32,000 nucleotides of DNA from Myxococcales bacterium. Its GTDB lineage: Bacteria > Myxococcota_A > Polyangia > Polyangiales > Polyangiaceae. Where the stretch lies: the NCBI GenBank assembly GCA_004193285.1, contig SECP01000038.1:39740-71739 (forward strand), read 5' to 3'. The notes under the pieces are model-generated. The model searched no databases. It was not told the DNA's origin and was given only the letters and a program-made list of their open reading frames with translations. Shown one piece after another: positions 5,891-30,310 of this stretch (position 1 is its first letter; each line of letters begins with the position of its first letter). The position numbers and the translations under genes are program-made.

Positions 5891-6234
5891 GAGCTCTCTC
5901 CGTTGAGGCGCTGGTGGGCTCTCGGCGCGCACGACGCTGCCGCGAGAGCCAGGCGCCAATTGCCCGCACGCAATCCTTCGGGCAGGTCAGTAACCAGCTC
6001 TCGAAGCAAACAGGCAGTGCGCGCGCTCTTCGCTTCCCTCCATACTTTTGCTCCCGCGGTCGACGCCGGTTGACGGCGCTCTGACGCGTGAGCGCGAAGG
6101 TCATGTCGGCCGCCCCTGGCCACCAGTACTCGGATGAGAGCTCGCGACCACGCCAGTCGGGCGGAGCGGCTCGGCGGAGCATGGCCGGCCCGCACCCGTC
6201 GGGTTGTCGTCCCGCTCGGCCCTATCGAGCAGTT

Positions 6235-6320
6235 TTGCCACAGTCGATTTGCGCCAAAAGTAACATGATTACAATTACTTACAGATGGATAGACGGTTTA
6301 CTCACATTGGCCAACAGCGC
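6235..6320 (+). promoter_or_regulatory. AT-rich island upstream of the histidine kinase gene (candidate promoter region)
   Basis: ttgccacagtcgatttgcgccaaaagtaacatgattacaattacttacagatggatagacggtttactcacattgg is conspicuously AT-rich in a GC-rich context. It contains TTGCGC (6249-6254) and TACAAT (6270-6275), but the 15-nt spacing is sub-optimal. Confidence 0.25.
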
Positions 6321-6346
6321 TGAAGGCGGTACCGTTCGCGCTACGG

Positions 6347-8671
6347 GTGGGCCAGACGTCATCGATCAAGGATCATTTCGCCGCTCCGGACTTCGCGGCG
6401 CTCCTGCATGCGCAGCTGGAGGACGCACGCCAGACGTGGGGGCTGAAGTACGTAGCCCTCGCGGAGCTCTCGCTGGGTCCGCTGCCGCTATCACCGACTT
6501 GGCGCGCCACGACTGGAACCGGTCCCTTCGACGAGCCACCGGCGCGCGACCTGTTCGAAGAGCACTCGGACGACGAGCCGCGAGCGTCATCGGTAGCAAT
6601 GACGTACGGACCCGATTCGGACGTTTTGGTGACGGCGTTGCGCGTCGCTCCGCGCTTGGCGTCGCACGCGGACGCCGTCTTGCTGCTGGCTCCGGCCAGC
6701 GTCATCCCGACTGACACTTTCTTGCAGCTGCTCGAGGTCTTGGAGCGAGCGCTATCACGGCAGCGCAGCTCCGAGCTCGCTGCCATCCTTGCCGCGGCCG
6801 CCGAGCAAGCGGCGGATCCGCTCGAGCTCAGCGACCCGCAGGGTCGGCTATTTTACGTGAACTCGGCGTGGGAGCGCTTCACCGGCTACGAGCGGGCGGA
6901 GGCGCTGGGCCGAACCGCCGGCGCCATCTTCCGCGATCCGATCGAGTCGCTTCACGACCCCGCCTTCTATCAATACGCGATGGCAGAGCTGCACGCGGGG
7001 CGCAGCTGGATGGGGGCGATCTCCGGCAACGTGAAGGGCGGCCGGCGCGTCTTCGGCGAGGCCAACGTCGCGCCGTTCGAAGCACCGAGCGCGGGGCTGC
7101 GCGGGCACGTCGCGGTGCGGCGCGACATGGTGCATCGCACGGAGCGCGACCACGCGCTGGTCGCTGCGCACCGCGAGTTTCGGGCCGTGCTCTCCGCGAT
7201 TGCGGACGGCGTGTGCGTGTTGCGCGACGAGCGCATCTACTTCACGAACGCCACCTTCTTGGCCATCGTCGGGTTGTCCGAAGAGGAGCTGGTTGGGCGC
7301 TCGTTCGTGGACCTGGTGCACGAGGAAGACCGCGCGGCGTACAGCGAAGCCGGGGAAGCGCGGGTAGCGCGGGTACGCGTGAGTCGCGCCGGCAGCTCGC
7401 CTCGGTTCGTCGAAATCTCGAGCGCGGGGCGCGTCTCTTTCGAGGGGTGGCCGGCGACCATCTTGCTCGCGCGTGACACCACGGACTACCAGGTCGCCCG
7501 CGAAGAGCTCGCGCGCGCAGAGAAGCTCTCCGCCCTCGGTTCGCTCGCGGCCGGTGTTGCTCACGAAATCAACAATCCGCTCGCCTACGTCGCGCTCAAC
7601 CTGGAGCTACTCCGCGAGCACGGCGCTTCCGCGCTCGCAGAGCCGGAGCGCGAAGCACTCGAAGAAGCGCTCGAGGGCGTGGCGCGCATCCGCAACATCG
7701 CCAGCGAGCTCCACACGTTCTCGGGCAAGGACGAGCCGGGGGAGCCGGTCGCGGTGGACGTATCGCGCGCGCTCACTTCGGCGCTGAACATGGCCCAAAA
7801 CGAGATCCGGCACCGAGCGGCGCTCGTCCGCGAGATGGAGCCCGGGTTGTTCGCGCTCGGCCGCGAAGGGCAGCTCGTGCAGGTCTTCGTGAACGTGCTC
7901 ATCAACGCCGCGCAGGCGATACCGAAATCGAGCGCGAGGGAGCCGACGATCCGCGTCGCTTCGCGCCTGCTCGCCGACGGAGAGGTCGAGGTCTCGGTCA
8001 CCGACACCGGGATCGGTATCCCGGAGAGCGCGCTGCCCCAGCTCTTCGATCCCTTCTCCACGACCAAGCTGCGCGGGGACGGCGCAGGGCTAGGCCTCGC
8101 CATCTGCAAGCGCATCCTGGACGACCTGGGTGGTCACATCGCGATCCAGAGCGAGCTCGGTCAGGGTACGACCGTCACGATCACGCTGCCGGAAGCGGTC
8201 CCCGCTGCGCTCGCCTCCACGCCGCCGCAACCCAGCTATCGACGCATCGTGACCCGCGCACTGCGCATCCTCGTCGTCGAGGACGAGCGCCCCATCGCGC
8301 GCGCCCTGGAGCGAATGCTGGCGAGCCACGACGTCACCCTCGCTCACGACGGCGCCCGCGCGCTCGCGCTTCTCCGAGCCAGCAAGCGGTTCGACGTCGT
8401 GCTGTGTGACCTGATGATGCCAGGGATGACCGGGGCCGACCTGTATCGGCAGGCGGTAGAGGAAGCTCCCGAGCTGCGCGCGCGCTTCGTGTTCATGACC
8501 GGCGGCGCGGTCACCCCCGACACCAAAGAGTTCATCGACGCGTCGGTTGGCCAGGTATTGTGGAAGCCTTTCACGCCGGGCGCGGTGTGGGATTGCATTC
8601 AACGCGTGGCAGGTCGGGCGGAGGAGCAGCGCTCGGCGCGCGCCGCGCTCGGCGGTCCGTCTACGAAGTAA
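6347..8671 (+). CDS. Hybrid sensor histidine kinase / response regulator with PAS domains
   Basis: A 774-aa ORF. PAS-like segments: DPQGRLFYVNSAWERFTGYERAEALGR and ADGVCVLRDERIYFTNATFLAIVGLSEEELVGRSF. H-box AAGVAHEINNPLAY, N/G boxes NVLINAAQA, DTGIGIP, GAGLGLAICKRI. C-terminal receiver ILVVEDE..DVVLCDLMMPGMTG..WKPF. The start is uncertain: GTG at 6347 is the first in-frame start, and ATG at 6599 is an alternative. Confidence 0.9.
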   Translation: MGQTSSIKDHFAAPDFAALLHAQLEDARQTWGLKYVALAELSLGPLPLSPTWRATTGTGPFDEPPARDLFEEHSDDEPRASSVAMTYGPDSDVLVTALRVAPRLASHADAVLLLAPASVIPTDTFLQLLEVLERALSRQRSSELAAILAAAAEQAADPLELSDPQGRLFYVNSAWERFTGYERAEALGRTAGAIFRDPIESLHDPAFYQYAMAELHAGRSWMGAISGNVKGGRRVFGEANVAPFEAPSAGLRGHVAVRRDMVHRTERDHALVAAHREFRAVLSAIADGVCVLRDERIYFTNATFLAIVGLSEEELVGRSFVDLVHEEDRAAYSEAGEARVARVRVSRAGSSPRFVEISSAGRVSFEGWPATILLARDTTDYQVAREELARAEKLSALGSLAAGVAHEINNPLAYVALNLELLREHGASALAEPEREALEEALEGVARIRNIASELHTFSGKDEPGEPVAVDVSRALTSALNMAQNEIRHRAALVREMEPGLFALGREGQLVQVFVNVLINAAQAIPKSSAREPTIRVASRLLADGEVEVSVTDTGIGIPESALPQLFDPFSTTKLRGDGAGLGLAICKRILDDLGGHIAIQSELGQGTTVTITLPEAVPAALASTPPQPSYRRIVTRALRILVVEDERPIARALERMLASHDVTLAHDGARALALLRASKRFDVVLCDLMMPGMTGADLYRQAVEEAPELRARFVFMTGGAVTPDTKEFIDASVGQVLWKPFTPGAVWDCIQRVAGRAEEQRSARAALGGPSTK

Positions 8672-8686
8672 GAGGAGGAACGAAGC

Positions 8687-9448
8687 ATGAAAATCCAGAC
8701 ATGGGTCCTAACGATCTCGCTTTGCTCGGGGTGTGGCGCGGAGGGTCTCGACCCGGAAGCGGGGCTGAATCAGGCCGGGCAGCAGCAGAGCGCGCTCTCG
8801 AACAAGGACTTCGACGTGGGCTTCACGGGCTGCACCGAATTCGCTGGCATCGGCTTCGTGCCGGCCGAAAACGCGCGACCGCTCGTGCCCGAGCCCTACG
8901 CGCTCGCGGGCGACGCGCAGAGCGCGATCGCGGTCGTGCGGGTCGCGAGCTGCCAAGACGCGATCGTGGACGGCAAGTCGGTGGGGCCGACGCGAACCTC
9001 GCAAATCGGGATCATGCTCGCGGGCGGAGACGCCACCGCCGACATCAACAACTACACCGTGGCCTACGTGACGAACCAGGCCCGGCTGCACGCGCGCTTG
9101 CAAGGGGCGGGGCTCACGACCGACAAGAGCGACGCGATTCGGCTCCTGCTCGCGGGGACGACCCTCACCGCGACTTCGACGAACTTTCAAATCACGGGGA
9201 GTGCTGCGGTTCCGACGAGCGCGCCCACCACGTTCGTGGCGAGCTGGTGGGCGGACGGGCGGCACGGCACCGTGCAGTCCCGAACCGTGTTCCCGGACAT
9301 TCGCTTCGGTAGCGCGAGCACGACGCTCACGACCCCCAGCTCTTCCGAGCTCGGGGCGCTGCTGGACGCCACGACCCTGACCTTTCCGATTCTGGACAGC
9401 TACAACGCCTTCGCGACCGCACACCTCGAGGTGCGAATCAGCGACTGA
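8687..9448 (+). CDS. Hypothetical secreted protein / probable lipoprotein
   Basis: ATG at 8687 is preceded by a strong SD (aagaggagga) and lies 15 bp after the kinase stop. The N-terminus MKIQTWVLTISLCSGCGAEG looks like a signal peptide with a Cys. I recognise no domain. Confidence 0.72.
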   Translation: MKIQTWVLTISLCSGCGAEGLDPEAGLNQAGQQQSALSNKDFDVGFTGCTEFAGIGFVPAENARPLVPEPYALAGDAQSAIAVVRVASCQDAIVDGKSVGPTRTSQIGIMLAGGDATADINNYTVAYVTNQARLHARLQGAGLTTDKSDAIRLLLAGTTLTATSTNFQITGSAAVPTSAPTTFVASWWADGRHGTVQSRTVFPDIRFGSASTTLTTPSSSELGALLDATTLTFPILDSYNAFATAHLEVRISD

Positions 9449-9466
9449 GCTTGCGGCTCGGTGCCC

Positions 9467-10858
9467 TCAGTGCGTGCCGGCGCCGGCCTTCACGGCCGCC
9501 GGCACCGCGCTGGCCGCGTCCAGCGAGTAAGCGTAGCTCGGGGTAAAGCCCTCCCCCTGCCCGCCCGTGGTCTTCGTGCCGGTGGTAGACACGTACTGGT
9601 TCACCTTGGCGTCGGTGCCGACCGCGATGTAAGCGGTGGCCGCGTCCGAGTCGGCTTTGCCCTCGTTGTTGAACTCGTGAGGACGCGTGACGCCCTCGAA
9701 GTAGTTCGCTTCCAGCAAGACGCTAGCCTCGATGCCGGCGCGGACGCACGAGCTCGACGCCTTCGAGCTGTAGTAGTTGTTGAACAGATGGTTCCGGCCG
9801 TATCGGACGCGCGGCTGTCGCTCCACCACGCCGTCCGCCCACCAGTTGTGATGCCAGGTCACGTTCAGGGGTCGCGTACCGGGCCAGCCTTTGGGCGCGG
9901 TGTCCGAGCCGCCGACCAAGTTGCTGAAGCGATGACCAGCGGCTCCGGTGGAGTCGTCGCCGACCTCGTCCGTGCGAGGCGTGTAGGAGAACTTCGTCCA
10001 CGAGACCGTGACGAAGTCTGCTTCGTTCGTGATGTCCAGGTTGCCGTCGGTGCCGTCCATGATCGAGCAATGGTCGAACCACACGTGATGCGCGTCCCCG
10101 TTGACGCTGATCGCGTCCGCGCCCGACGAGCAGCCGACGCTGGCATCGAAGCCCGGATCCTTCTTGCAATCGCCGGCGCCGTAGCCGGAAATCTTCAAGT
10201 TGCGGAAAATCAGGTTGGCGCTTTCTTTACCGATCGCGAGGTGGCCTTGCAGACGCGCACCGGAGGAGCAACCGATGACCGTCTTGTTCGAGCCAACGTC
10301 GATGTCGTCCGGCGCGAAGTCGCCTTGGACATAGATGACCTTGGGTACGTCGTCCTTCACCGCTTCTTTGAGCTGGGCAAGCGTGGTCACGAGCACGGGC
10401 TTGGCGGACCCTCCACCCGTCGTTCCGGAGCCAGAGCTCGCCCAGCCAACCGGCTTGGGGTCGCTGGCGATGAAGCTCGGCACCGCACACGGTCCGTCCT
10501 CGTTCGTGCCGTAGCCGCCCGAGCCCGCCGTGCCAGCGCCGCCGTTGCCATTGGAGCCGCCGCTGCCCGCCGCCGAACCACCCACGCCGGAAGAGCCGGA
10601 GGCTGCGCCCGCCTGGCCGCTGGCGCCGCCGCCGACGGCCTGCCCACCCATCGCCGCACTGCCGCCGCTCGCAGGCGACCCAGCGGTGGAGCTCGTGCCG
10701 CCCGCGGCGGACCCGCCGTTGCCGCTGCCGGCGATCGCGCTGCCGGACCCGCCGCTGCCAGCGACGCCGCTCACCGGGTCGCTTGGAGCCGAGCCACAAG
10801 CTTGCCCGAACAGGGTCATCGTCACCGCTCCGAGCCATGCCCGCTTACCTCGAATCAT
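9467..10858 (-). CDS. Pectate lyase (PL1 family) with lipoprotein-type signal and Gly/Ser/Ala-rich linker
   Basis: I take the start at ATG 10858-10856 (MIRGKRAWLGAVTMTLFGQAC). After a long G/S/A linker the catalytic region reads GADAISV..HVWFDHCS..DGNLDIT..VTVSW..HRFSNLVG..VTWHHNWW..RQPRVRYG..HLFNNYY, the classic PelC/PL1 beta-helix signature. The track ORF extension to 11119 is unlikely. Confidence 0.9.
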   Translation of the reverse strand: MIRGKRAWLGAVTMTLFGQACGSAPSDPVSGVAGSGGSGSAIAGSGNGGSAAGGTSSTAGSPASGGSAAMGGQAVGGGASGQAGAASGSSGVGGSAAGSGGSNGNGGAGTAGSGGYGTNEDGPCAVPSFIASDPKPVGWASSGSGTTGGGSAKPVLVTTLAQLKEAVKDDVPKVIYVQGDFAPDDIDVGSNKTVIGCSSGARLQGHLAIGKESANLIFRNLKISGYGAGDCKKDPGFDASVGCSSGADAISVNGDAHHVWFDHCSIMDGTDGNLDITNEADFVTVSWTKFSYTPRTDEVGDDSTGAAGHRFSNLVGGSDTAPKGWPGTRPLNVTWHHNWWADGVVERQPRVRYGRNHLFNNYYSSKASSSCVRAGIEASVLLEANYFEGVTRPHEFNNEGKADSDAATAYIAVGTDAKVNQYVSTTGTKTTGGQGEGFTPSYAYSLDAASAVPAAVKAGAGTH

Positions 10859-11106
10859 CCCGCACTTATGTCGCGCCGTCTGACGGGGGGCCAGGGACAA
10901 TCTGTCACGGGGCAGCGTGAGCGCTCTCAGACCAGCTGGAGCCGGGGGTCCTAGCGGTGACGCTGCAGGATTCCGGACCGCGCGGCGGAAGCGAGCGGAG
11001 CTCGAGCCCCAAGCCCTTGCCTCATCGTGAGACTGGCAATCTGCTGCAGAGGGGGCGACGATGAAGGCCATTTCTTCGGGCGGTCCCGGAGAGCGAGGAG
11101 GCTGCG

Positions 11107-12138
11107 ATGCTGCGAGCAAGCGTTTTGGGAGCCGTGAGCGCTTTGGCGCTGGGATTGTCCGCGAGCGTGGCGCATGGCGCGACGCTCAGGGTGCCAGCGC
11201 AGTACACGACGATTCAGGCCGCGGTGGACGCGGCCGCGCCCGGAGATCGGATCGTGGTGCACCGAGGGCGCTACTGCGGCGCGACGCTGACCAAGCCGGT
11301 AGTGCTGGTGGGCCGCGGCCAGCCGCGAGTGATCGGTTGCGCGACGAGCCCGCAAGTAACGACCGGGCTTCGTGCGGGGTTCTTCTTGCCGGGCAGCAAG
11401 GGCAGCAGCGCCGCGAGCGGGAGTCAGATCCGCGGCTTCGTGTTCGATGGCCGCGGCGTGTCCAGCACGAGCTTGGAGCCGCTCTCATTCGGCGTCTTCG
11501 GCCGCTTCGCGAGCGACGTGGTGGTGGAGAAGAACCGCTTTCTGGGGACGGTGCAGGCGATCACGAACACCGGCGGGGACCGCTGGCAGATCCGCAAGAA
11601 CCGCGTAAAAAAGCTGACCCTGCTGGATTGCACGGTGCGCCACTGCACGGGTGGCGACGGCATCGTGATCCAAGTGGGCCGCGGCGCGCTGGCGGCGCCG
11701 GGCGGGGACGCGGCCGCGGAGAATCGCCCCGAGGACAACGCGATCGTGGACAACCGAATCGAGGGTACGGCGCCGGACGGCTTCGCGGTCTTCTCGATGG
11801 TGGGCGTGCTCCTTCTATCGGCGGATCACACCACCGTGCTGAGCAACCGGCTCACGCTGCGTGACAACCCGCGGGCGGCCGCGGTGGGCCAAGGGATCGT
11901 GATTTCGAATACCTGCTGCGGTCTCGGCACGAGCTTCTTGCCAGGCTCCCGCTTCACCACCGTCGCCTTCAACGACGCGCGCCGCAGCGAAGCGGGCATC
12001 GTCGTGGAGGGGAGCGGCGGCGCCAACACCTTGGGCCTGCTGCTGCATCGCAATCGCGGCACCGTGACGATCGAGGGCGAGCTGGTCGCCAAAGCACTCC
12101 GCGTCATGGGCCCCGTGCGGGCGCAGCCGACGCAGTGA
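11107..12138 (+). CDS. Secreted right-handed parallel beta-helix repeat protein (NosD/pectin-lyase-fold like)
   Basis: ATG at 11107 with GGAGG about 6 nt upstream. Signal peptide MLRASVLGAVSALALGLSASVAHG|A. The N-terminal block LRVPAQYTTIQAAVDAAAPGDRIVVHRGRY is typical of beta-helix proteins, and the periodic NxI/V-rich segments fit that fold. It is divergent from the pectate lyase gene. Confidence 0.72.
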   Translation: MLRASVLGAVSALALGLSASVAHGATLRVPAQYTTIQAAVDAAAPGDRIVVHRGRYCGATLTKPVVLVGRGQPRVIGCATSPQVTTGLRAGFFLPGSKGSSAASGSQIRGFVFDGRGVSSTSLEPLSFGVFGRFASDVVVEKNRFLGTVQAITNTGGDRWQIRKNRVKKLTLLDCTVRHCTGGDGIVIQVGRGALAAPGGDAAAENRPEDNAIVDNRIEGTAPDGFAVFSMVGVLLLSADHTTVLSNRLTLRDNPRAAAVGQGIVISNTCCGLGTSFLPGSRFTTVAFNDARRSEAGIVVEGSGGANTLGLLLHRNRGTVTIEGELVAKALRVMGPVRAQPTQ

Positions 12139-12145
12139 GGGTTCG

Positions 12146-13711
12146 CTAGCCCGGCGGCGCGAGAGACACGTTGCCGGCCGCGCGGCGCGCGTTCTTCTGC
12201 GCGTACATCGCTTCGTCGGCCTGCTCCAGGAGGTCGGTCAAGCTGGTGTGCGCGCCGACGGGCAGGTACGCCCCGCCCATGCTCATGGAGAGCCGAAACG
12301 GCCGCTTCGATGCCGCCGTTTGCTGGTCCGAGAGCTGGCGGAGGCGCTGGCGCAGCGAGCTCAAATCCAGCGGCGTGAAGTCGAGCGCGAACACGACGAA
12401 CTCGTCACCGCCGAGGCGACCGAGCACGTCCGACTCGTGGAGGGCTCGTTGCAGCACGTCCGCGGTGTCCACCAGCGCGGCGTCGCCCACGTCGTGGCCG
12501 AGCTCGTCGTTGATGCGCTTCATGCCGTTGAGGTCGACGAAGACGAGCGCGGCCGGCCGCGCGTCGCGCAGCGCAACGCTGTGGGCTTGCGCCGCTACCT
12601 CCAGGAAGCCACGACGATTGTACAAGCCGGTCAGCTCGTCGCGCAGCGCGAGGCTCTTGAGCTGCTTGGCGTAGCTGCTCAGCTTCGCCTCCGCCTCGAC
12701 GCGCTCGGTCACGTCGCGGCCCGCGAGCTGCAGCTCACAGGGGTCACCGCTTGCGTCCTTGCGCGCGACCCAGCGCACATCGAACCAGCGGTATTCGCCG
12801 GACTTGTGCCGGATCCGATAAGTCCTTTGCCCGCGGGTGGACTCACCGCGCTTCAGCTCTTCCCAGAGCGTGTCAGCCATCGCCAAATCGTCGGGGTGCC
12901 GCAAATCCAGCGGGTTTAGCGCGAGGTACTCTTCCACCGTGTAGCCGAGCAGATGCTGAACGGAGGGGCTCACGTAGGTAACCTTGCCGTCCAGGCTCAT
13001 CAGCCGCACCAAGTCACTGCCGTGCTCCGAGAGCAGGCGATAGTATTCTTCGCTGCGGGCAAGCTCCTCGGCCGTCTGCTTCAGCTCGTCGACGTCGCGC
13101 TGGACGGTCAGGAAGCTGAACAGCGCGAACAAGATGGTCATCGCCGAGCCGACGCTCACGCCCCACATCGCAGTGTGCTCCGCCCGGCTTGCGTCCGCCT
13201 TACGCCGCTGAAGTGCGTGCTCTTCGTGCTGCAGCATCCGCCGGGTCTGGGTGCGAACTTCGTCCATGAGCAGCTTGCCGCGGCCGCTGCGAATGAGCCG
13301 CATGGCGAGAGTCGTGTCGTCTCCACGGCGCAGCTCGACCGTCTCGGTCACGAACGCCAGCTTGGCTTCGATCTGCGACCTGAGCTGTTCCAAGCGCTCG
13401 TTTTGCGCCGAGTCGCCGCGCACCAGGTCGGCCAGCTTTGCGAGCGCCGATGGCAGGTCCCGGCGCGCCAACGTGTAGGGCTCCAAAAACTGGTCATCCC
13501 CGCTCAAGATGTAGCCGCGCTGCCCCGTCTCGGCGTCCTTGAGGAGCGAGAGCAAGCCGTTGATCGACGACTCCACCGCGAGCGTGCGCTCGACCGCCTC
13601 CATGGCCGCCACGTAGCGGCGACCGGAGAAGTAGGAGAGCAGCCCCACCGCTGTCACCAGGACGAAAATGATCGCCCAGCCGAGGCGCTTGGTCTTCAGG
13701 AGGGTATTCAT
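12146..13711 (-). CDS. Diguanylate cyclase with CHASE3 sensor, TM, PAS and GGDEF domains
   Basis: I take the start at ATG 13711 (MNTLLKTKRLGWAIIFVLVTAV, a TM segment). CHASE3-like LKDAETGQRGYILSGDDQFLEPY is followed by a second TM, PAS (LMSLDGKVTYVSPSVQHLLGY) and GGDEF (DELTGLYNRRGF..FVDLNGMKRINDELGH..RLGGDEFVV). Confidence 0.9.
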   Translation of the reverse strand: MNTLLKTKRLGWAIIFVLVTAVGLLSYFSGRRYVAAMEAVERTLAVESSINGLLSLLKDAETGQRGYILSGDDQFLEPYTLARRDLPSALAKLADLVRGDSAQNERLEQLRSQIEAKLAFVTETVELRRGDDTTLAMRLIRSGRGKLLMDEVRTQTRRMLQHEEHALQRRKADASRAEHTAMWGVSVGSAMTILFALFSFLTVQRDVDELKQTAEELARSEEYYRLLSEHGSDLVRLMSLDGKVTYVSPSVQHLLGYTVEEYLALNPLDLRHPDDLAMADTLWEELKRGESTRGQRTYRIRHKSGEYRWFDVRWVARKDASGDPCELQLAGRDVTERVEAEAKLSSYAKQLKSLALRDELTGLYNRRGFLEVAAQAHSVALRDARPAALVFVDLNGMKRINDELGHDVGDAALVDTADVLQRALHESDVLGRLGGDEFVVFALDFTPLDLSSLRQRLRQLSDQQTAASKRPFRLSMSMGGAYLPVGAHTSLTDLLEQADEAMYAQKNARRAAGNVSLAPPG

Positions 13712-14044
13712 GGCGTGCGCTGGGCGCAGACCAGGGCGCCAGTTCAACCAGCGTGCAGGCTAGTCGGTCCCGCTCAGCCGCGGCAATTGACTTCACAACT
13801 CCACACCGGCCCTCGGGCCGCCCGAATACGAATGCTTTAACTTACGCGACGCGCTCGAAAGTGACGCGGCCCGTCGCAGCCAAAAGCGCCTCGTTCGAGG
13901 CGAACAGCCTCGCCGGTCTCAGGATGGTTCGAACCGGTGCCAGGCGGGACTCAAATGCAGAAAGCGGCCCAAAACCGGCTTTGATGTGAGCTTCGAGAGC
14001 ACCACTCCAAGGGGTTGGAACAGCAGCTGCAAAGCGTGGCCGCG

Positions 14045-14269
14045 ATGCTTACTCGTTTGGCCCGCCCGGCCATCGCTGCTTCCTTAGCCTTCGCCTGCAC
14101 CCCGGCGACTACGGCCGCGCCACCGCCGCGGCTGGAGGCGGGGTACCTCGTCGTGAAGCCGGACGTGTCCGTGTCGCGCAACGCCCAGCCCGCGATCGCC
14201 AAGAACGTAGCGGTCGACGAGCACTCCGACGTGATGGCCGAGATTTTGGCTATCCCACCCGGCCGGTAG
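14045..14269 (+). CDS. Possible small lipoprotein (74 aa), weakly supported
   Basis: MLTRLARPAIAASLAFACTPATT... has a signal peptide plus lipobox LAFAC. There is no convincing SD. The region is otherwise intergenic. Confidence 0.3.
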   Translation: MLTRLARPAIAASLAFACTPATTAAPPPRLEAGYLVVKPDVSVSRNAQPAIAKNVAVDEHSDVMAEILAIPPGR

Positions 14270-14302
14270 CGTCTTTGCCATCGGCCGCTAACGTAGAGGT
14301 CG

Positions 14303-15946
14303 ATGCTCGAAACGCCGCTGCGAGAGCTGCCGGTCTTGATCGTCGACTGCCAGACGACGGGCGCGTCTCCGGTGCTGGGCTCGATCTTGGAGCTCGGCTG
14401 GTGCGTTGCGCGGGCCGACGGGACCGAGCCAGAGGCGGAAGCGCATTGGATCCTCCTGCCGGAGGGCGAACGCATCTCCGCTCAAGTCCGCGCGCTCACT
14501 GGCTTTCACGAAGGCGTGCTGGAGCATGCGCTTGCGCCGGAAGACGCGTGGCGTCGCTTGCGCGCGGCGTTGCCGGTGGATAGGGCGCCGAGCGCCATCC
14601 ATTTTGCCCGGTTCGAGCTGAGCTTCCTCAAGGATTGGGCCACGCGCTTCGAGCCCGACACACCATTTCCGATCGAGGCGGTGTGCGTTCACGCCATCGC
14701 GTGCCGGCTCTACCCCGACTTGCCGCGGCGAAACCTGCGCGCGTTGGCTGGTTTCCTCGGGCATGGGCTCCACCTCGAGCGACGCTCGCTGGGTCACGTC
14801 TTGGCGACTTCCTTCATCTGGCAGAAGCTCGTCAGTGAGCTCGAGGGACGCGGCATCCGCGACTGGGCGGCGCTCGGCGCCTGGCTCGCGAGCGCGGACA
14901 AGCCGGCGACTCCACGCAAGCGTCGCTACCCCATCGCACCCGCCAGCTACCGCTCGCTGCCGGATCAATCCGGCGTTTACCGCTTCTTGCGCTCCAACGG
15001 CGACGTCCTGTACGTGGGCAAGGCGACCAGCCTGAAAAAGCGCGTCTCTTCGCACTTCACCAAGCAGAGCGGCGCTACGGAGCGCGCGCTCGAGATGCTC
15101 ACCCAGGTGAGCGACATCGCCTTTACTGCGACGAGCAGCGCTTTGGAAGCCGCGCTGCTCGAGACCCAGCTGATCAAGCAGCTCGATCCGCCTTACAATG
15201 TCCAGCTCGTGCAAGGCGAGCGGGGGGTGTGGTTCGCCTCGACGGACTTCCGCAGCGCGACGACCGAACCGGATGACCAGCACCCGTTCGGTCCTCTCTC
15301 TTCGCGCTACAGCGTGCGCGCGCTCGGCGCGCTGCGCCAGCTGCTCGCGGGCGCCGAGTCGACCGCTTCGCTTCGTGCCGCAAGCGTTGGGGCGCCGGTC
15401 CGCTTCGGACCCGAGGAGCCGGCATTCTCCGCTGGCTTCGCGCTGTTCCGAGACAAGCACGGGTCGACCGACGCCCGACTGATCGCCCGGCGCATCTTGC
15501 TCGCCTCGCCCGAGGAGCCAGAGCCGGAAGCCGCTGCCGACGACGCCCCGAAGGTTTGGGATCCACCGCGCGTGTGCCGTCACCTGGAGCGGGCCTCCGC
15601 GCAAGCGTACCAAGTTTGGCGGCGCGCCGCGTGGCTGTGCCTACTGGCAGACAGCAGTATCGCGTATCGAGAGCCAGGCGCGGCGGTCACGCGGTACCTA
15701 TCGATCGGCGCGGCGGAGCTCACCACCTCCGGCGATCTCACCGCGGACGCGCCGCTACCAGCACCGGAGCGCAGCTCGCGTCGGGTCGCTCAGCGCGCAT
15801 TCGACGCCGCACGCTACGACTGGCTGCGTATCCTCACCACCGAGCTCAAGCGCATCTTGCGCGACGGCGGCGAGGTGAAGGTCCGGCTGTCACGTACACG
15901 CCTCCTCCAAGGCGCCGCCCTCGCGCGCGTACTGCGAGTCGTGTGA
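14303..15946 (+). CDS. DnaQ-like (DEDD) exonuclease domain fused to GIY-YIG (UvrC/Cho-like) nuclease domain, plus about 250-aa uncharacterised C-terminal region
   Basis: ATG at 14303 with GAGG upstream. The N-terminus has the epsilon-like fold pattern LIVDCQTTG..ILELGW..AIHFARFELSFL..GHVLATS. The middle region GVYRFLRSNGDVLYVGKATSLKKRVSSHF..ALEAALLETQLIKQLDPPYN is the GIY-YIG signature as in the UvrC N-terminus or Cho. Confidence 0.8.
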   Translation: MLETPLRELPVLIVDCQTTGASPVLGSILELGWCVARADGTEPEAEAHWILLPEGERISAQVRALTGFHEGVLEHALAPEDAWRRLRAALPVDRAPSAIHFARFELSFLKDWATRFEPDTPFPIEAVCVHAIACRLYPDLPRRNLRALAGFLGHGLHLERRSLGHVLATSFIWQKLVSELEGRGIRDWAALGAWLASADKPATPRKRRYPIAPASYRSLPDQSGVYRFLRSNGDVLYVGKATSLKKRVSSHFTKQSGATERALEMLTQVSDIAFTATSSALEAALLETQLIKQLDPPYNVQLVQGERGVWFASTDFRSATTEPDDQHPFGPLSSRYSVRALGALRQLLAGAESTASLRAASVGAPVRFGPEEPAFSAGFALFRDKHGSTDARLIARRILLASPEEPEPEAAADDAPKVWDPPRVCRHLERASAQAYQVWRRAAWLCLLADSSIAYREPGAAVTRYLSIGAAELTTSGDLTADAPLPAPERSSRRVAQRAFDAARYDWLRILTTELKRILRDGGEVKVRLSRTRLLQGAALARVLRVV

Positions 15947-16124
15947 AGCCGCCGCTGCTCAGCGGTTGCCGGCACCCAGGGCTAGCGGGGCAGCTACCGC
16001 GCGCGCCAACTCGCGCTGCGCGGTAGCTTGCCACGCGCTCACCGCCCTTGCCCGTGCTCAGCCCTTCTGAGTAGCCACCTACGCTGAGCAACTTTGGCGC
16101 TACGGAGCGCCTGTGCCTCGCATC

Positions 16125-16337
16125 TCAATGATACGGGTCGAGCAGCCCCGGCGCGTTGTTGGCCGGGTTGGCCGGAGCAGGCACGTCGCGGTACGAGAAG
16201 TAAGCTCCGGCCGCAACTCCTGCGGCCGAAACTACGAACAGTACCGCCGCGATCCACGAGCGGCGCGTCCGGTCTGCATTGATTTCACGAAGCCCTTCTT
16301 CGGGACTGAAGTCGGATACGTGGGTTGCATGAGCCAT
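16125..16337 (-). CDS. Small single-pass membrane protein (70 aa), hypothetical
   Basis: The ATG (16337-16335) is preceded by an excellent SD, GGAGGTGA (complement of 16341-16348). It has one hydrophobic helix (WIAAVLFVVSAAGVAAGAYF). Confidence 0.55.
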   Translation of the reverse strand: MAHATHVSDFSPEEGLREINADRTRRSWIAAVLFVVSAAGVAAGAYFSYRDVPAPANPANNAPGLLDPYH

Positions 16338-16493
16338 ACGTCACCTCCGCTTCCACAACGTGCATCGCGCATGCCCAATTCCCGCGCACTCCGACCGCTC
16401 CATGTGACCCTCCCGAATGTGCGGTAGCTCGATTTGCAGCCTATGCGGAAACGGCGCCGCGAACCAAAGCCGCTCGCTCGCGGAAGCCACTGT

Positions 16494-16659
16494 CCTCGGC
16501 TCGATCCCTTCTTCGGATCCGAAGGATCAACGCCCGCTCAACTCCAGGCGACACGGAACGAAAGCTCGGCGCGTCACCGCGTCGGGTTCCTCAGCGATGG
16601 CGATGGCGGAGTTGATGCCTCCTCGGCTCGATCCCTTCTTCGGATCCGTGGATCCGAAG
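16494..16659. repeat. Two copies (127-bp spacing) of an element carrying the palindrome CTTCGGATCCGAAG
   Basis: cctcggctcgatcccttcttcggatccg occurs at 16494-16521 and 16621-16648. The first has the perfect 14-bp palindrome (16511-16524). The second has CTTCGGATCC-GT-GGATCCGAAG (16638-16659). The same palindrome anchors the array at 29.0-30.0 kb. Confidence 0.9.
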
Positions 16660-16771
16660 GATGAACCCCGCTCCCACGCTCCGTGTCCGTGTCTCGAAGC
16701 GTTCAGGCCCCAGCCGCACTCGGTTTGCGCATCGCCACGCTACTGCCAGCCGCGCTTTTCCTGCCGTGCCC

Positions 16772-18378
16772 GACTTCAGCGGCTCGTTATTGCCGGTTCG
16801 CGACCCGCCCGCATACGGGCGGTTGGAGCTGAGTCGACCAACCCACGTGGGCCATGAGCTCACGTCAGCTGTTTGCGCAAGCTCCCCACGCGACTCGTTA
16901 TTGCCCTTTGCGACCTGCCCGCGCACCGGGCGGTCGAGCCGAGTCGACCAACCCACGTGGGCACCATGAGCTCACGTCGCTCTTCTCGCGAGCTCCCGCG
17001 CGACTCGTTATTGCCCTTTGCGACCTGCCCGCGCACGGGCGGTCGAGGCGAGGCGAGTCGACCAACCCACGTGGGCACCATGAGCTCACGTCAACTGTTC
17101 TCGCGAGCTCCCCGACTCGTTATTGCCGTTTGCGACCCGCCCGCGCACCGGGCGGTTCGAGCCGAGTCGACCAACCCACGTGGGCACCATGAGCTCACGT
17201 CAGCTGTTTGCCCAAGCTCCCCGCGCGACTCATCATTGCCCTTTGCGACCCTCCCGCGCACCGGCCGCTTCGAGCTGAGTCGGCCAACCCACGTGGCAAC
17301 CATGAGCTCACGTCGCTCTTCTCGCGAGCTCCCGCGCGACTCGTTTATTGCCGGTTCGCGATCCGCCCGCGCACCGGCCGCTTCGAGCTGAGGCGACCAA
17401 CCCACGTAGGCACCATGAGCTCACGTCAGCTGTTCTCGCGACCGCGCCGCGACTCGTTTTTGCCGTTTGCGACCCGCCCGCGCACCGGGCGGTCGAGCCG
17501 AATCGACCAGCCCACGTGGGCACCATGAGCTCACGTCGCTCTTCTCGCGAGCTCCCACGCGACGCGAGCTGAGGCGACCAACCCACGTGGGCACCACGAG
17601 CTCACGTCAGCTGTTCTCCCAAGCTTCAGCGGCTCGTTATTGCCGTTTGCGACCTGCCCGCATACGGGCGGTTCGAGCTGAGTCGACCAACCCACGTGGG
17701 GCATGAGCTCAGGTCAGCTGTTTGCCCAAGCTCCCCGCGCGACGCGTTATCGCCGTTTGCGACCCTCCCGCGCACCGGCCGCTTCGAGCTGAGGCGACCA
17801 ACCCACGTGGGCACCACGAGCTCACGTCAGCTGTTCTCGCAAGCTCCCCGCGACTCGTTTATTGCCGGTTCGCGATCCGCCCGCGCACCGGACCCTTCGA
17901 GCTGAGGCGACCAACCCACGTGGGCACCATGAGCTCACGTCAGCTGTTCTCGCGAGCTCCCCCGCGACTCGTTATTGCCGTTTGCGACCCGCCCGCGCAC
18001 CGGGCGGTCGAGCTGAGTCGACCAACCCACGTAGGCACCATGAGCTCACGTCAGCTGTTCTCGCGATCTCCCCGCGCGACTCGTTTTTGCCGTTTGCGAC
18101 CCGCCCGCGCACCGGGCGGTCGAGCCGAATCGACCAGCCCACGTGGGCACCATGAGCTCACGTCGCTCTTCTCGCGAGCTCCCACGCGACGCGTGCGACC
18201 TGCCCGCGCACCGGCCGCTTCGAGCCGAGTCGACCAACCCACGTCGGCACCATGAGCTCACGTCAGCTGTTTGCCCAAGCTCCCCCCGCGACTCGTTATT
18301 GCCGTTTGCGACGTGCCCGTGGGCGCGGTGTGAGCCGACTTGCCCGCGTAGGCCGCTCGTCTGACCGGCCCACGTGGA
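16772..18378. repeat. Tandem array, about 110-bp unit, 15 copies (two internally deleted), non-coding
   Basis: The core CCCACGTGGG or a 1-mismatch variant occurs at 16842, 16952, 17066, 17175, 17288, 17401, 17511, 17582, 17691, 17802, 17915, 18026, 18138, 18238 and 18369. Spacings are 109-114 bp except 71, 100 and 131. Unit consensus is roughly catGAGCTCacgtCAGCTGttctcgcGAGCTCcccgcgactcgttattgccgtttgcgacccgcccgcgcaccgggcggtcgagccgaGTCGACcaaCCCACGTGGGcac. Confidence 0.95.
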
Positions 18379-18379
18379 T

Positions 18380-18720
18380 GAAACCCAAGTCGAGGTGCAC
18401 ACGCGGCGGCTCATCCCACCCGGGGTCGCTTCAAGTCACCGGCGCACGCCGGGGCGCTTGAAGTCGATGTGACCGGTGGCGAGCTCGATCGACGCAACCA
18501 CGCGGGCGCGATTCGAATCGACCGGAGCACGGCGGGGCGCTTCGATCAACCAGCGCACGTGGGCCGGCCTTCAAGTGGACCAGGCCACGTGGGCCGGGTC
18601 CAAGTCGATGTGACCAGCGAGCCGGTCGACGGACCCACGGGTGCGATTCAAGTCTACGCGCTCATCGGCGCATCAAATCGCAGTCGCGATCGGAGTCGAG
18701 CTGCGCGTGGGCGCAAAGCG
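18380..18720. repeat. Degenerate short-period (about 25-29 bp) repeats of the array core motif
   Basis: Recurrent (c/t)tCAAGTC / tcGATC ... CACG(T/C)GGG modules start near 18386, 18432, 18460, 18486, 18514, 18543, 18572, 18601, 18624, 18649 and 18674. Examples are cttcaagtggaccaggccacgtgggccgg and cttcgatcaaccagcgcacgtgggccgg. They resemble the gaGTCGACCaaCCCACGTGGGc end of the 110-bp unit. Confidence 0.7.
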
Positions 18721-18950
18721 GGTGCGCATGCCTACGACTGTGGGTTGGCTTTGAGCCAAGCACAGGCCTCGGTGAGCACCGCGACGTTGCACATCACCTG
18801 CACGAGGTGGTGGCTTCTTCTTGGGTTTCTTCGCGCGCGCGTCGTGAAAAGCGTAAGCGAATCGTTTCAACCGAGCAGCCCCGGTCATGTCGCACAGCTA
18901 GAAGCGCGTACCGAGGACGCAACCTAGAACGAGGTTTGAGGCATGCTGTG

Positions 18951-19150
18951 CGCTCGGCGCTCGGCGCTCGGCGCTCGGCGCTCGGCGCTCGGCGCTCGGC
19001 GCTCGGCGCTCGGCGCTCGGCGCTCGGCTCTCGCCCTCGCCCTCGGCGCTGGGCTCTCGCCCTCGGCTCTCGCCCTCGGCGCTCGCCCTCGGTTCTCTGC
19101 TCTGCTCGCGGCTCCGCGCTGCTCCGCTCTCCGCTCGCCGCTCTCCGCGC
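18951..19150. repeat. Heptanucleotide microsatellite: (CGCTCGG)x11 perfect, then degenerate CTCTCGC/CCTCGGC/GCTCTCC heptamers
   Basis: Eleven perfect contiguous CGCTCGG units span 18951-19027. Pyrimidine-rich variants continue to about 19150. The overlapping ORFs are Arg/Ser/Ala repeats in all frames, so I treat them as artefacts. Confidence 0.95.
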
Positions 19151-19476
19151 TCGACTCCGCTTGGTGCGGTGGCGACGACACCGAGCGCCCGCGCCAGACC
19201 CATACGCCTCGCACCAGACGCCATGCATTTCTTTCACCTGGACGGGCAGGCCCTCGCAGTGGCGCGACCTACACGCCATTCAGCGCGAGCTACGGTCTCA
19301 ACTTCCAACCTTCCGATGTCCTGAAATCACATGTGGCCACGCGACGTGCAGCGCGAGCGTCAATCTTGTCGGCTCATGATTCTCGCCGTCGTAAAGTCAC
19401 GGGCTTTCACCTGGACGACAATCGGTACCTACAAGCCGGCACGTGAGCTTCTGCGAGTTGAGCTGCGGCGTGGCAG

Positions 19477-19497
19477 CCCGCTGCTGAGCGGGTTTTA
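19477..19497 (+). terminator. Candidate intrinsic terminator with no annotated upstream gene
   Basis: CCCGCT-gctg-AGCGGG is followed by TTTTAG. It is oriented for a + strand transcript coming out of the gene-free region. Confidence 0.4.
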
Positions 19498-19647
19498 GTC
19501 GTTTGATTCCCGGCGCTTGCAGCACTGTTGCTCCATGGCGAACGATGTTTGCCGATTTAGCCGGCTAGTTGTAACGGCCCCGCCTGACCACATTCAGTGG
19601 CGTTACTCACCAAACTCGAAACGTATCGCAAGACGGAGATTGTACAG

Positions 19648-20169
19648 ATGGCATTCAACATCGACAAGGCGCACTCGGAAGTTGGTTTTGGCGTCAAGCA
19701 CATGATGATCAGCACGGTGCGCGGCAAGTTCACGCGCTTCGACGCTGACGTTCAGCTCGACCCTGCGCATGTCGAGGCAGCCACCGTGACCGCGCGGGTG
19801 GAAGCAGGGAGCATCGACACGGGCGAAGAGAAGCGCGATGGGCACCTGCGCTCCGCGGACTTTTTCGACGCAGAAAAGTACCCAACCTTGACGTTCACCA
19901 GCACGAGCGTGAAGCGCTCGGGCGAGGACCTCGAGGTCGCCGGCAACTTGAAGATCAAGGATCAGGAGCACCCGGTTACGCTCAAGGGTGAGCTCACGGG
20001 CCCCAGCAAAGACCCTTGGGGCAACGTACGCGTGGGCCTCAGCCTGACCGGTGAGCTCGAGCGCGAGAAGTGGGGCTTGGGCTGGAACCAGGCACTGGAA
20101 GCAGGCGGCGTGCTCGTCGGCAAGAAGGTGAAGATCTCGATTGAGGCGGAGCTCGTGCAAAGCGCGTGA
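19648..20169 (+). CDS. YceI-family (polyisoprenoid-binding-like) protein
   Basis: ATG at 19648 with GACGGAG upstream. MAFNIDKAHSEVGFGVKHMMISTVRGKFTRFDADV...DTGEEKRDGHLRSADFFDAEKYPTLTFTST..L.IKD..VTL is the typical YceI signature. No signal peptide is evident. Confidence 0.85.
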   Translation: MAFNIDKAHSEVGFGVKHMMISTVRGKFTRFDADVQLDPAHVEAATVTARVEAGSIDTGEEKRDGHLRSADFFDAEKYPTLTFTSTSVKRSGEDLEVAGNLKIKDQEHPVTLKGELTGPSKDPWGNVRVGLSLTGELEREKWGLGWNQALEAGGVLVGKKVKISIEAELVQSA

Positions 20170-28933: not shown

Positions 28934-29002
28934 ACCTCGCAACGTACCGAAAGCAGCCGACGCCAGATTCGCGGCAGCGGCTGCTGCTCCGCAGCCCGTG
29001 TG

Positions 29003-29037
29003 CTTCTCGGCTTCTCGGTTTCTTCTCGGCTTCTCGG
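29003..29037. repeat. Octamer CTTCTCGG x4 (short tandem repeat) at the left edge of the second array
   Basis: CTTCTCGG occurs at 29003, 29011, 29022 and 29030. Confidence 0.85.
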
Positions 29038-29045
29038 CTTCCTTC

Positions 29046-30050: not shown

Positions 30051-30181
30051 ATCTCGAAGGTATTTGGAAACAGTCAACGCGGACTAAAGAGGCGGCGGGC
30101 AGGGCGGCGACTTCTCTGCGCGCGCGGAAAGAGCTGACAGAGCGGAGAGCCAGGTGCTGCGTGCGTCCATCGGCGGCGGAT

Positions 30182-30310
30182 GGAGAGCGGAGAGCGAAGA
30201 GAGCGGAGAGCAGGCGGGGCGAAGAGCGGAGAGCGGAGAGCAGACAGGGCGAAGAGCGAAGAGCGGAGAGCAGACAGACAGGGCGGAGAGCGGAGAGCGG
30301 AGAGCAGACA
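30182..30310. repeat. Purine-rich heptamer repeats (GGAGAGC / GAAGAGC) in triplet blocks separated by AGACAGGGC-like spacers
   Basis: ggagagcggagagcgaagaga..gaagagcggagagcggagagcagacagggcgaagagcgaagagcggagagcagacagacagggcggagagcggagagcggagagcagacagggggg. GGAGAGC is the complement of the GCTCTCC heptamers at 19.1 kb. Confidence 0.9.

Follow-up and report, generated by a model that had tools for sequence, protein, structure and literature searches.

Non-coding satellites are documented in bacteria, though they are rare (Subirana & Messeguer 2019, PMC6749651). Intergenic satellite families occur in Leptospira interrogans, GC-rich microsatellite families of 6–8 nt in Burkholderia and a heptamer family in Chloroflexus, while only 2.7% of bacterial satellites exceed 1.5 kb and most of those with a long period are multiples of 3 and coding (PMC6749651). 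The chromosomal centromere of Myxococcus xanthus, in turn, comprises 22–24 parS sites (consensus TGTTCCACGTGGAACG) spread over ~3 kb, about 4 kb from parA (PMC3899335). The tandem array analysed here lies in a 32,000-nucleotide stretch of chromosomal DNA from an uncultured, myxobacterial member of the Polyangiaceae (referred to as the window), and it shares with the prokaryotic satellites its head-to-tail, non-coding, intergenic repeats, its restriction to a species or lineage and the GC-rich heptamer microsatellites alongside. It differs from them in its length of ~1.55 kb, which places it in their long tail, in its period of 113 bp, which is not a multiple of 3, and in a sequence family that is new. 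With the M. xanthus parS cluster, which belongs to the same phylum, it has in common ~20 CACGTG-centred palindromes over 2–3 kb and an identical central 8 bp (CCACGTGG), but the array lacks the outer TGTT...AACA arms, repeats the whole 113-bp unit rather than the site alone, has no parAB within 32 kb and occupies a position that is not conserved in relatives.

Plasmid centromeres and iteron arrays likewise consist of regular direct repeats, each with an inverted repeat; sopC of the F plasmid has 12 repeats of 43 bp, and iteron arrays adjoin rep genes. The present unit is 2.5–5 times longer, neither sopAB nor parAB nor a rep gene adjoins it, and its context is chromosomal, with conserved flanking gene order and no similarity to plasmid records. 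The preliminary description of this locus had named F sopC as the closest architecture, for which the M. xanthus cluster is the better comparison, yet membership of the parS family fails as well (see below). REP/BIME units of enterobacteria are dispersed at hundreds of loci in alternating orientation, and the 40–100-bp MIRUs of mycobacteria are often in frame with flanking ORFs. Like these, the array is made of intergenic tandem units rich in palindromes or hairpins, for which copy-number variation among strains is expected, but unlike REP/BIME elements all of its units are direct and they occupy a single locus in 32 kb. Regularly spaced palindromic repeats also recall CRISPR, which the preliminary description had rightly set aside: the 113-bp unit is conserved throughout, with no unique spacers and no cas genes in the window.

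The array interrupts the region between two divergent genes, the relevant features being as follows.

16125–16337, minus strand: left flanking gene, translated as a 70-aa predicted single-pass membrane protein and transcribed away from the gap
16383–19516, no strand: lineage-specific non-coding insertion of 3,134 bp between the divergent small gene and yceI, containing nothing but repeat families with short unique spacers
16475–16534, plus strand: copy 1 of a palindromic element of ~50 bp that contains CTTCGGATCCGAAG, a 14-bp palindrome; common to the 230-bp array at 29050–29900
16620–16669, plus strand: copy 2 of this element, with the degraded palindrome CTTCGGATCCGTGG, starting 127 bp after the copy 1 repeat core (16493)
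18792–18822, plus strand: terminator-like hairpin followed by a T-rich tail, in a unique spacer (consensus match only)
18945–19152, plus strand: heptamer microsatellite, (GCGCTCG) ~11 times, grading to (GCTCTCC)n and related units
19435–19500, plus strand: 48-nt element AGCTTCTGCGA..GCTGCG..TGGCAGCC, then the hairpin CCCGCT-GCTG-AGCGGG and TTTTAG (hairpin read directly from the sequence)
19517–19647, plus strand: ancestral yceI upstream region, retained intact, including a block conserved in relatives L011, L006, L020 and L005
19648–20169, plus strand: right flanking gene, yceI-like (Pfam PF04264, E 1e-49)

The spread of G+C among the three codon phases did not exceed 0.18 across 16350–19600, as opposed to 0.3–0.45 in the flanking genes, and none of the 10 longest ORFs in the gap had a Pfam match, which upholds the earlier view of this gap as gene-free. 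Peptides read from the ATG of each unit were out of frame after about 10 residues, and this drift rules out the coding of a repeated peptide, also in line with what had been described. Polyangiaceae genomes being large and of low density, a gene-free gap of 3.3 kb may stand out less among them than the preliminary description assumed. The left flanking protein had no Pfam match, but tblastn revealed that it is kept in relatives L011, L006, L007 and L020. The window encodes GIY-YIG, Lhr, GGDEF and LysR proteins besides YceI, and its gene order is common to chromosomal contigs of related MAGs. Neither a DnaA box (at up to 1 mismatch) nor an origin-like GC-skew switch was found in the window, and an oriC was accordingly rejected.

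In the closest relative (MAG contig L011, 83–93% nucleotide identity), just 240 bp separate the two flanking genes: its positions 1–107 align with window positions 16276–16382 and those from 171 onward with 19517 onward, leaving 63 bp between. Three further Polyangiaceae MAGs (L006, L020 and L005) complete a range of 195–300 bp at a position that measures 3.3 kb here, indicating that 16383–19516 is a 3.1-kb lineage-specific insertion consisting entirely of repeats. Absence or variability of the locus among close strains, together with a lack of protein binding to the palindromes, had been put forward as an argument against a specific binding platform, and it applies in part, the array being absent at this position in the closest available relatives.

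Tandem Repeats Finder reported a period of 113 bp over 16779–18319, in two rows of ~7 copies each with 84% matches, as well as higher-order periods of 224 and 335, and thereby confirmed the units. A unit profile searched against the 32 kb revealed 14 significant copies at 16784–18285 (E 1e-18 to 1e-34) and a decayed copy at 18293–18353 (E 5e-5), with no other significant match in the window, i.e. a single locus. The 15 units of 109–114 bp in the preliminary description are thus a real array, but they resolve into 14 recognisable head-to-tail units, 12 full-length (109–114 bp) and two truncated, plus one that has decayed.

16772–17562, plus strand: satellite block A, units 1–7, 109–122 bp as cut (Tandem Repeats Finder, unit alignment, profile)
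17563–17633, plus strand: truncated unit 8, 71 bp, core half only (unit alignment, profile)
17634–18189, plus strand: satellite block B, units 9–13 (unit alignment, identities, profile)
18190–18289, plus strand: truncated unit 14, 100 bp (unit alignment, profile)
18290–18394, plus strand: decayed 15th unit, 63–68% identity to the other units (profile, E 5e-5)
18333–18720, plus strand: decayed zone with 5–6 diverged copies of the 21-bp core module AGTCGACCAACCCACGTGGGC and ~7 TTCAAGTCGA boxes at irregular spacing of 28–58 bp

Mean unit-to-unit identity was ~85% (range 79–100%), and the units form an ordered mosaic of subtypes in which near-identical pairs are not adjacent (units 7/13 100%, 6/11 94%, 1/9 93%). 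The junction of units 8 and 9 repeats 7–9 nt (TCAGCGG) of the unique left flank that precedes unit 1, indicating that a block including the array's own edge was duplicated within the array. Its 3′ edge is decayed, and the 21-bp core module occurs there six times at up to 6 mismatches, as opposed to 0 times in the other 28.9 kb.

No dedicated function of the array could be shown, and it looks like bacterial satellite DNA: it has 14 direct units where three would suffice, is neither translated nor part of a known RNA gene, and its presence varies among related genomes. On balance, we favour an origin of the array as non-coding satellite (minisatellite) DNA, formed and enlarged at its present site and confined to this one Polyangiaceae lineage. 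The starting site would have been the short divergent promoter region between the small membrane-protein gene and yceI, where a bipartite, palindrome-rich module, AGTCGAC-N4-CCACGTGGGC, may have become repeated at ~30–55 bp spacing, with the decayed zone (18333–18720) as its remnant. One module plus ~86 bp of neighbouring sequence would then have become the 113-bp unit, of which further copies could have come from replication slippage or from unequal recombination between sister chromosomes, with block duplication and gene conversion rearranging the array afterwards. Such expansion is plausibly favoured by the GC hairpin and the closely packed palindromes, via fork stalling and strand mis-alignment. 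Both this mechanism and the order of its events are what we infer from the sequence, as is neutrality. Persistence of the array would need no cellular function, and its main effect appears to be structural, in that ~3.1 kb of repeats now part two promoters that were formerly ~200 bp apart. The short spacing in the four relatives speaks for a recent gain, yet the divergence among units (~15%) is of the same order as that from L011, which might indicate fast mutation, an array older than a recent gain, or one that arrived already diversified. If the satellite reading holds, the locus presents a clean, datable birth of satellite DNA in a bacterial chromosome, with the empty ancestral site in four relatives and with a decayed seed zone, higher-order units and a block duplication on display in the array.

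The palindromes might instead mark a protein-loading array, as the preliminary description had proposed with its loading platform or sponge. The roughly 20 copies of AGTCGAC-N4-CCACGTGGGC across the array and the decayed zone would then be candidate sites for a dimeric DNA-binding protein, and the array would act like a centromere or a parS cluster, organise the nucleoid or serve as a titration sponge; we regard this as possible, though rather unlikely. A 23-bp core occurred 12 times at up to 3 mismatches as opposed to 0 times in 100 shuffles, and CCCACGTGGG was perfect in 10 copies and off by a single base in 5, as described earlier. The other palindromes that had been placed at every junction were less regular, with GTCGAC intact in 7 of the 14 units, TGAGCTCA in 12 and CAGCTG in 9. 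The consensus unit contained 6 palindromes of at least 6 bp, compared to 2.3 in dinucleotide shuffles (P ~0.01–0.03), while the single 10-mer palindrome taken alone gave P = 0.16, so the palindrome density of the unit is unusual only to a moderate degree. Their apparent phasing follows from one unit having been copied 14 times and does not represent 14 independent events.

What speaks for binding is that the 32-bp palindromic core deviates from consensus by 3.6% as opposed to 10.8% in the rest of the unit (~3-fold better conserved, with a P value that is indicative only, because the units are not independent samples). This better-kept core, together with the survival of the module in the decayed zone, is the pattern expected from selection on a binding site. 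The ~3-kb parS cluster that forms the M. xanthus centromere moreover has a similar site density, and CCACGTGG, the centre of the core, is also the centre of the parS site (PMC3899335). On the other hand, one-sided changes without compensation affect the palindrome in 4 of the 14 units, and 113 bp corresponds to 10.8 helical turns (own calculation), so that successive sites face different sides of the helix. The 16-bp parS palindrome (TGTTNCACGTGAAACA; TGTTCCACGTGGAACG in M. xanthus) had 0 sites at up to 3 mismatches, the central CCACGTGG being the only common part and the TGTT/AACA arms missing, by which parS was rejected. Neither parAB nor an origin lies near the array in the window, where a domain search of the ORFs revealed no parA, parB, rep, cas, transposase or RAYT-type gene; the earlier statement that no parAB or rep gene is adjacent was therefore correct, and no other obvious partner gene was found in the 32 kb. 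Four relatives, finally, have no array at this position, and a related array was found nowhere in the collections searched. A literature search on CACGTG in Myxococcus yielded nothing useful.

The binding-platform reading, if true, would make this a young, non-canonical centromere-like array. In its more specific form, a site with the myxobacterial parS centre CCACGTGG would have given rise, recently and within one Polyangiaceae lineage, to a non-canonical parS-like pseudo-centromere or titration sponge; we consider this improbable, but it would amount to a new protein–DNA platform born by satellite expansion.

Searches for related sequences covered both nucleotide and protein collections. The core pattern CCCACGTNGGCACCAYGAGCTCA had 0 matches in GTDB species genomes, JGI metagenomes and IMG/VR, and plasmid and phage sequences searched by BLASTN with the entire insertion yielded nothing. 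The array's spurious ORFs, translated from both strands in order to find similar arrays annotated as proteins by gene callers, had 0 homologues in 5.8 billion proteins. Searched exhaustively with HMMER, 1.84 billion cluster representatives yielded one match (P0001), rejected as a repeat-on-repeat artefact because its 79-aa repeat is of different period and composition. Two CCCACGTGGG sites 95–110 bp apart matched more than 120 metagenome contigs, but only the 10-mer was common and blastn and nhmmer revealed no wider similarity; these contigs are unrelated arrays with many different periods, some of them real CRISPR repeats (for example L096 and L098), and by a rough estimate hundreds of such matches are expected by chance at that collection size. 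Judged by its sequence, the unit is thus a new family without a relative in any collection searched.

A second lineage-specific, repeat-only insertion was found 9.4 kb downstream of the first, and it consists of the following features.

28934–30386, no strand: second insertion, 1,453 bp as opposed to 87 bp in L011
29003–29041: (CTTCTCGG)n, within the second insertion
29050–29900: array with a 230-bp unit in 3.7 copies, followed by partial copies as far as about 30050, within the second insertion
30182–30321: (GGAGAGC)n, the reverse complement of the first insertion's heptamer, within the second insertion

Such a similar insertion nearby suggests a lineage-wide tendency rather than a locus-specific device. 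It also bears on the view that the array is a cluster of a dispersed REP/BIME- or MITE-like palindromic family, inserted as a block or as units by a transposase acting in trans and recurring at many loci, which we deem unlikely. Both insertions carry the ~50-bp CTTCGGATCCGAAG element, at sites 12 kb apart, which is absent from 1.4 Mb of the relatives' loci, and both carry the heptamer microsatellite; the GC hairpin of the unit, furthermore, resembles a REP element. An imperfect direct repeat of 11–12 bp, AATTCCCGCGC / GATTCCCGGCGC, flanks the first insertion, and its motif occurs once in L011, which hints at insertion of a pre-formed element and speaks against growth in place. However, no inverted repeats could be seen by eye at the ends of the first insertion, no direct repeat was seen in the sequence at the ends of the second, the 113-bp unit is confined to its one locus within 32 kb, no transposase or RAYT-type gene accompanies it in the window, and copies were not found in the public collections searched. 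The 48-nt element near the end of the first insertion, for its part, is conserved at scattered intergenic sites of related MAGs. Under the satellite reading, two repeat-only insertions in 32 kb suggest that some large-genome myxobacteria accumulate repeat-only intergenic DNA.

Tandem small-RNA genes or one long structured transcript (a repeated structured transcript had been raised in the preliminary description) are a very improbable explanation. Four units end, on the plus strand, in a weak terminator-like hairpin (5-bp stem) followed by the unit's only T-rich stretch, and a terminator-like hairpin, read from the sequence, closes the insertion at about 19476–19500. The array, however, had no Rfam match, its RNA folding z-scores of –0.9 and –1.4 were not significant, and the covariation term of the consensus fold (+0.84 kcal/mol) was not in favour of structure, with compensated change at only 2 pairs; on these grounds a structured RNA was rejected. 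Some units have a strong GC hairpin (–10 to –12 kcal/mol on DNA folding, with z from about –2.5 to –2.9), but in units 5, 6, 10, 11 and 14 it is lost without compensation (–3.4 to –3.8 kcal/mol, z ~+0.9), just as had been noted for part of the units. No promoter-like site was found inside the array, the terminator-like hairpin is weak and limited to four units, and the fold is not conserved, whereas each unit of a tandem small-RNA array would have its own promoter and terminator and a conserved fold. Judged by eye only, neither the unit nor the 48-nt element has the spacing that a sigma-54 or ECF-type promoter would require, and such motifs were rejected.

That a long-read or scaffolding error created or inflated the array is scarcely credible: short-read assemblies do break inside it and its copy number is as read in this assembly, but independent short-read contigs of run SRR6998475 match the window at 100% on both sides, breaking at 16918 (1.3 units into the array) and resuming at ~19075, which confirms that the array edges are real, and the units are distinct variants in an ordered mosaic, unlike collapsed or expanded identical copies. 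These breaks suggest that repeat-only DNA of this kind is systematically lost by short-read MAG assemblies, a loss that would skew how coding density and intergenic content are estimated for the clade. Every short-read contig break that was traced falls in a repeat, including the end of contig L001 at window position ~29080, at the start of the 230-bp array.

The gap between the small gene (16125–16337, minus strand) and yceI (19648–20169, plus strand) was indeed gene-free, as the preliminary description had proposed: the codon phases differed in G+C by at most 0.18 across 16350–19600, versus 0.3–0.45 in the neighbouring genes, and its 10 longest ORFs all lacked a Pfam match. The array itself could likewise be rejected as coding, with a period that is not a multiple of 3, drifting frames, no codon-phase signal, and peptides from each unit's ATG that diverged after about 10 residues. 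The gap was composed of the following elements:

16475–16534 and 16620–16669: two copies of a ~50-bp element with the 14-bp palindrome CTTCGGATCCGAAG
16772–18289: 113-bp array
18290–18394: decayed 15th unit
18333–18720: decayed zone with core modules and TTCAAGTCGA boxes
about 18720–18945: unique spacer with a terminator-like hairpin
18945–19152: (GCGCTCG)n microsatellite that passes gradually into (GCTCTCC)n
19153–19516: unique sequence with a hairpin and TTTT at its end

Tandem Repeats Finder called a period of 113 at 16779–18319 (two rows of ~7 copies each, 84% matches), together with higher-order periods of 224 and 335, and the tandem array is real. When it was cut at the CCCACGTGGG anchors and the pieces were aligned, 12 full units of 109–114 bp were obtained next to the shorter units 8 (71 bp) and 14 (100 bp), while a 15th copy shared merely 63–68% identity with the remaining units. 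A profile HMM of the unit recovered 14 copies at E 1e-18 to 1e-34 and the decayed copy at E 5e-5, with no further significant match outside the array in the 32 kb. The 15 units counted earlier are thus 14 recognisable units and a decayed one. A 23-bp core occurred 12 times at ≤3 mismatches versus 0 times in 100 shuffles. The units were distinct variants (79–100% identical) in mosaic order rather than identical copies; units 7 and 13 were identical though non-adjacent, and the unit 8/9 junction repeated 7–9 nt of the unique flank found before unit 1. The best-conserved part of the unit was a 32-bp core, ACCAACCCACGTGGGCACCATGAGCTCACGTC, deviating from the consensus by 3.6% versus 10.8% elsewhere. 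The decayed zone contained the 21-bp core module AGTCGACCAACCCACGTGGGC six times at ≤6 mismatches (0 occurrences on both strands of the other 28.9 kb) and the TTCAAGTCGA box ~7 times, at irregular spacings of 28–58 bp.

The reported tally of CCCACGTGGG (10 perfect copies, 5 with one mismatch) was reproduced, but GTCGAC, said to mark every junction, was intact in only 7 of the 14 units; TGAGCTCA was intact in 12 units and CAGCTG in 9. The consensus unit held six palindromes of at least 6 bp versus 2.3 in dinucleotide shuffles (P about 0.01–0.03), an enrichment that is only moderate, with P = 0.16 for the 10-mer palindrome by itself. The units arose by copying from one another, so the phasing of this cluster represents one event multiplied 14 times. 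Some units formed a strong GC hairpin (–10 to –12 kcal/mol when folded as DNA), which, in agreement with its reported absence from part of the array, was abolished without compensatory changes in units 5, 6, 10, 11 and 14.

With the Lhr helicase, whose gene adjoins yceI, as query, 80 related loci were obtained, every one of them uncultured; the top matches were Polyangiaceae/Polyangiales MAGs at 77–88% identity. In the closest contig (L011, from a different species at 83–93% nucleotide identity), positions 1–107 aligned with 16276–16382 of the window at 93% and positions from 171 onward with 19517 onward at 83%, leaving 63 bp where the window has 3,134 bp. In three further MAG contigs (L006, L020 and L005), the small gene and yceI formed a divergent pair 195–300 bp apart. 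Given the short spacing in these four contigs, the short intergenic state is ancestral and 16383–19516 a derived insertion. The flanking pair was conserved and the array was absent from that position in all four; no likeness to the insertion was detected in 1.4 Mb of relatives' loci, save for its last ~80 bp. To the right of the insertion, a block at 19517–19570 (TTGCAGCAnTGTTGC...CGAACGATGTTTGCCGATTTA) was undisturbed and present in all relatives examined (L011 171–225, L006 ~9520–9570, and equivalents in L020 and L005), and probably serves yceI as promoter or operator. Visibly, two promoters that once lay about 200 bp from each other now have 3.3 kb between them.

In L006, L020 and L005, unlike in the window and L011, the small gene and yceI were inverted as a block relative to the GIY-YIG and Lhr genes, and L011 was missing the GGDEF and guanylate-cyclase genes that separate Lhr from LysR in the window, so this neighbourhood rearranges often. 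The GIY-YIG gene (14303–15946, upstream of the gap) encodes a 547-aa protein with a central nuclease domain; it occupied the same position in L006, L007 and L020, and is therefore not a mobile homing endonuclease linked with the insertion. A conserved ~48-nt element (AGCTTCTGCGA..GCTGCG..TGGCAGCC) at 19435–19482, followed in the window by a terminator-like hairpin, recurred at scattered intergenic sites of related Polyangiaceae MAGs (L021 9727–9774, minus strand; L005 17620–17653; L004 1553–1595). It could be a small RNA or regulatory site; its spacing was unsuitable for a sigma-54 promoter.

BLAST of the 3.1-kb insertion against the rest of the window located a second one at 28934–30386, equally devoid of coding signal and measuring 1,453 bp versus 87 bp in L011 (with a similarly short gap in L006). 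It contained:

within 28934–30386: (CTTCTCGG)n
within 28934–30386: array of a 230-bp unit in 3.7 copies (91% identical), along with partial ones
within 28934–30386: (GGAGAGC)n, reverse-complementary to the first insertion's microsatellite

Every 230-bp unit carried CTTCGGATCCGAAG and a near copy of it, and the ~50 bp around the first CTTCGGATCCGAAG were 80% identical to 16475–16524. The 1.4 Mb of related loci, mostly short-read assemblies that would break at such repeats, yielded no arrays with a period of at least 40 bp that is not a multiple of 3, and essentially no heptamer microsatellites. Repeat-only intergenic insertions are thus present as a class in this lineage, or at least in this assembly.

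The core pattern had 0 matches in one genome per GTDB species, JGI metagenomes and IMG/VR, plasmid and phage records showed no BLASTN match to the insertion, and 5.8 billion proteins included no homologue of the array ORFs translated from both strands; 1.84 billion cluster representatives, searched exhaustively, yielded a single match, an unrelated protein whose repeats have a period of 79 aa. A less strict scan, for pairs of CCCACGTGGG sites 95–110 bp apart, for which we roughly estimate hundreds of chance matches in such a collection, matched >120 metagenome contigs. In most of these CCCACGTGGG lay inside a tandem array (periods of 23 to about 130 bp, some being CRISPR) that had no likeness to the 113-bp unit beyond the palindrome. 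Against the collections searched, the array is a new sequence family. Among the scanned contigs, L084–L163 (high-GC soil contigs, with arrays often at contig ends) carried CCCACGTGGG, mostly extended to a 12–16-bp palindrome, at periods of 23–24, 30, 36–37, 52–57 and 110–120 bp, and one ~52-bp family occurred on five contigs of one metagenome (L085, L102, L115, L116 and L122; sample Ga0137459). The sole near-match to the 21-bp core module among all fetched loci was GATCGAGCAACCCACGTGGGT (4 mismatches), in two copies of a 111-bp repeat at 12366–12589 of L132.

On balance, we lean towards the array being satellite DNA that evolves in place, because its homogenised body goes together with a zone of decay (seed or edge), periods of higher order, the identical units 7 and 13, and the flank copy at the unit 8/9 junction. 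The array's own left edge is the sole possible origin of that copy, so a block including this edge was copied. Unequal sister-chromosome recombination or replication slippage would explain all these features, might plausibly be favoured by the dense palindromes and GC hairpin, and would require no function. Non-coding satellites surveyed in prokaryotes are scarce; among bacterial satellites only 2.7% are longer than 1.5 kb, and those of long period are mostly multiples of 3 and coding (PMC6749651). The array fits this kind, at its rare end.

A candidate protein-binding platform, as suggested in the preliminary description, seems unlikely, though it is supported by the core's conservation beyond the rest of the unit and by the likeness to parS. 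In M. xanthus, 22 parS sites (consensus TGTTCCACGTGGAACG) share ~3 kb of DNA, with parA about 4 kb away (PMC3899335), and the likeness in architecture and central CCACGTGG is striking. However, no array site came within 3 mismatches of TGTTCCACGTGGAACG, and relatives lacked the array at the corresponding position. As to a plasmid centromere or iterons, the 32 kb contained no par or rep gene (none had been seen adjacent to the array) and the chromosomal gene order is common to relatives. A replication origin was rejected, with neither DnaA boxes nor a skew switch beyond the array's own C-richness, and the absence of spacers and cas genes bore out the earlier dismissal of CRISPR.

Somewhat more doubtful still is a REP/BIME-like mobile family, to which the elements common to both insertions and an imperfect 11–12-bp direct repeat at the ends of the first would point. 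This repeat (AATTCCCGCGC at 16377–16387, GATTCCCGGCGC at 19505–19516), found once as GATTCCACCGCC in the empty site of L011, may be a target-site duplication.

Small RNAs are very improbable, and neither small-RNA genes nor the repeated structured transcript envisaged earlier found support: the array matched no Rfam family at E values as lenient as 5 (a single chance-level match lay outside it), and had folding z-scores of –0.9 and –1.4 with an unfavourable covariation term, no promoter-like site, and a weak terminator-like hairpin in four units only. The array lacks those defining features that were tested for parS clusters, for plasmid centromeres and iterons, for CRISPR and for tandem small-RNA genes.

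Least probable is an assembly artefact. Short-read contigs of run SRR6998475, found by exact-protein look-ups, matched the window at 100%: one spanned 5322–16918, stopping 1.3 units into the array, and the next began within the heptamer microsatellite (about 19075) and ended where another array starts (about 29080). With edges matched by short reads and units that are distinct, an artefact is unlikely, the copy number being that of the assembly. The former contig (L002) begins, at ~5322, inside a 15-bp-period repeat (GCCGCCTTGGCCGAA, 7.4 copies) that spans 5249–5375 within overlapping ORFs.
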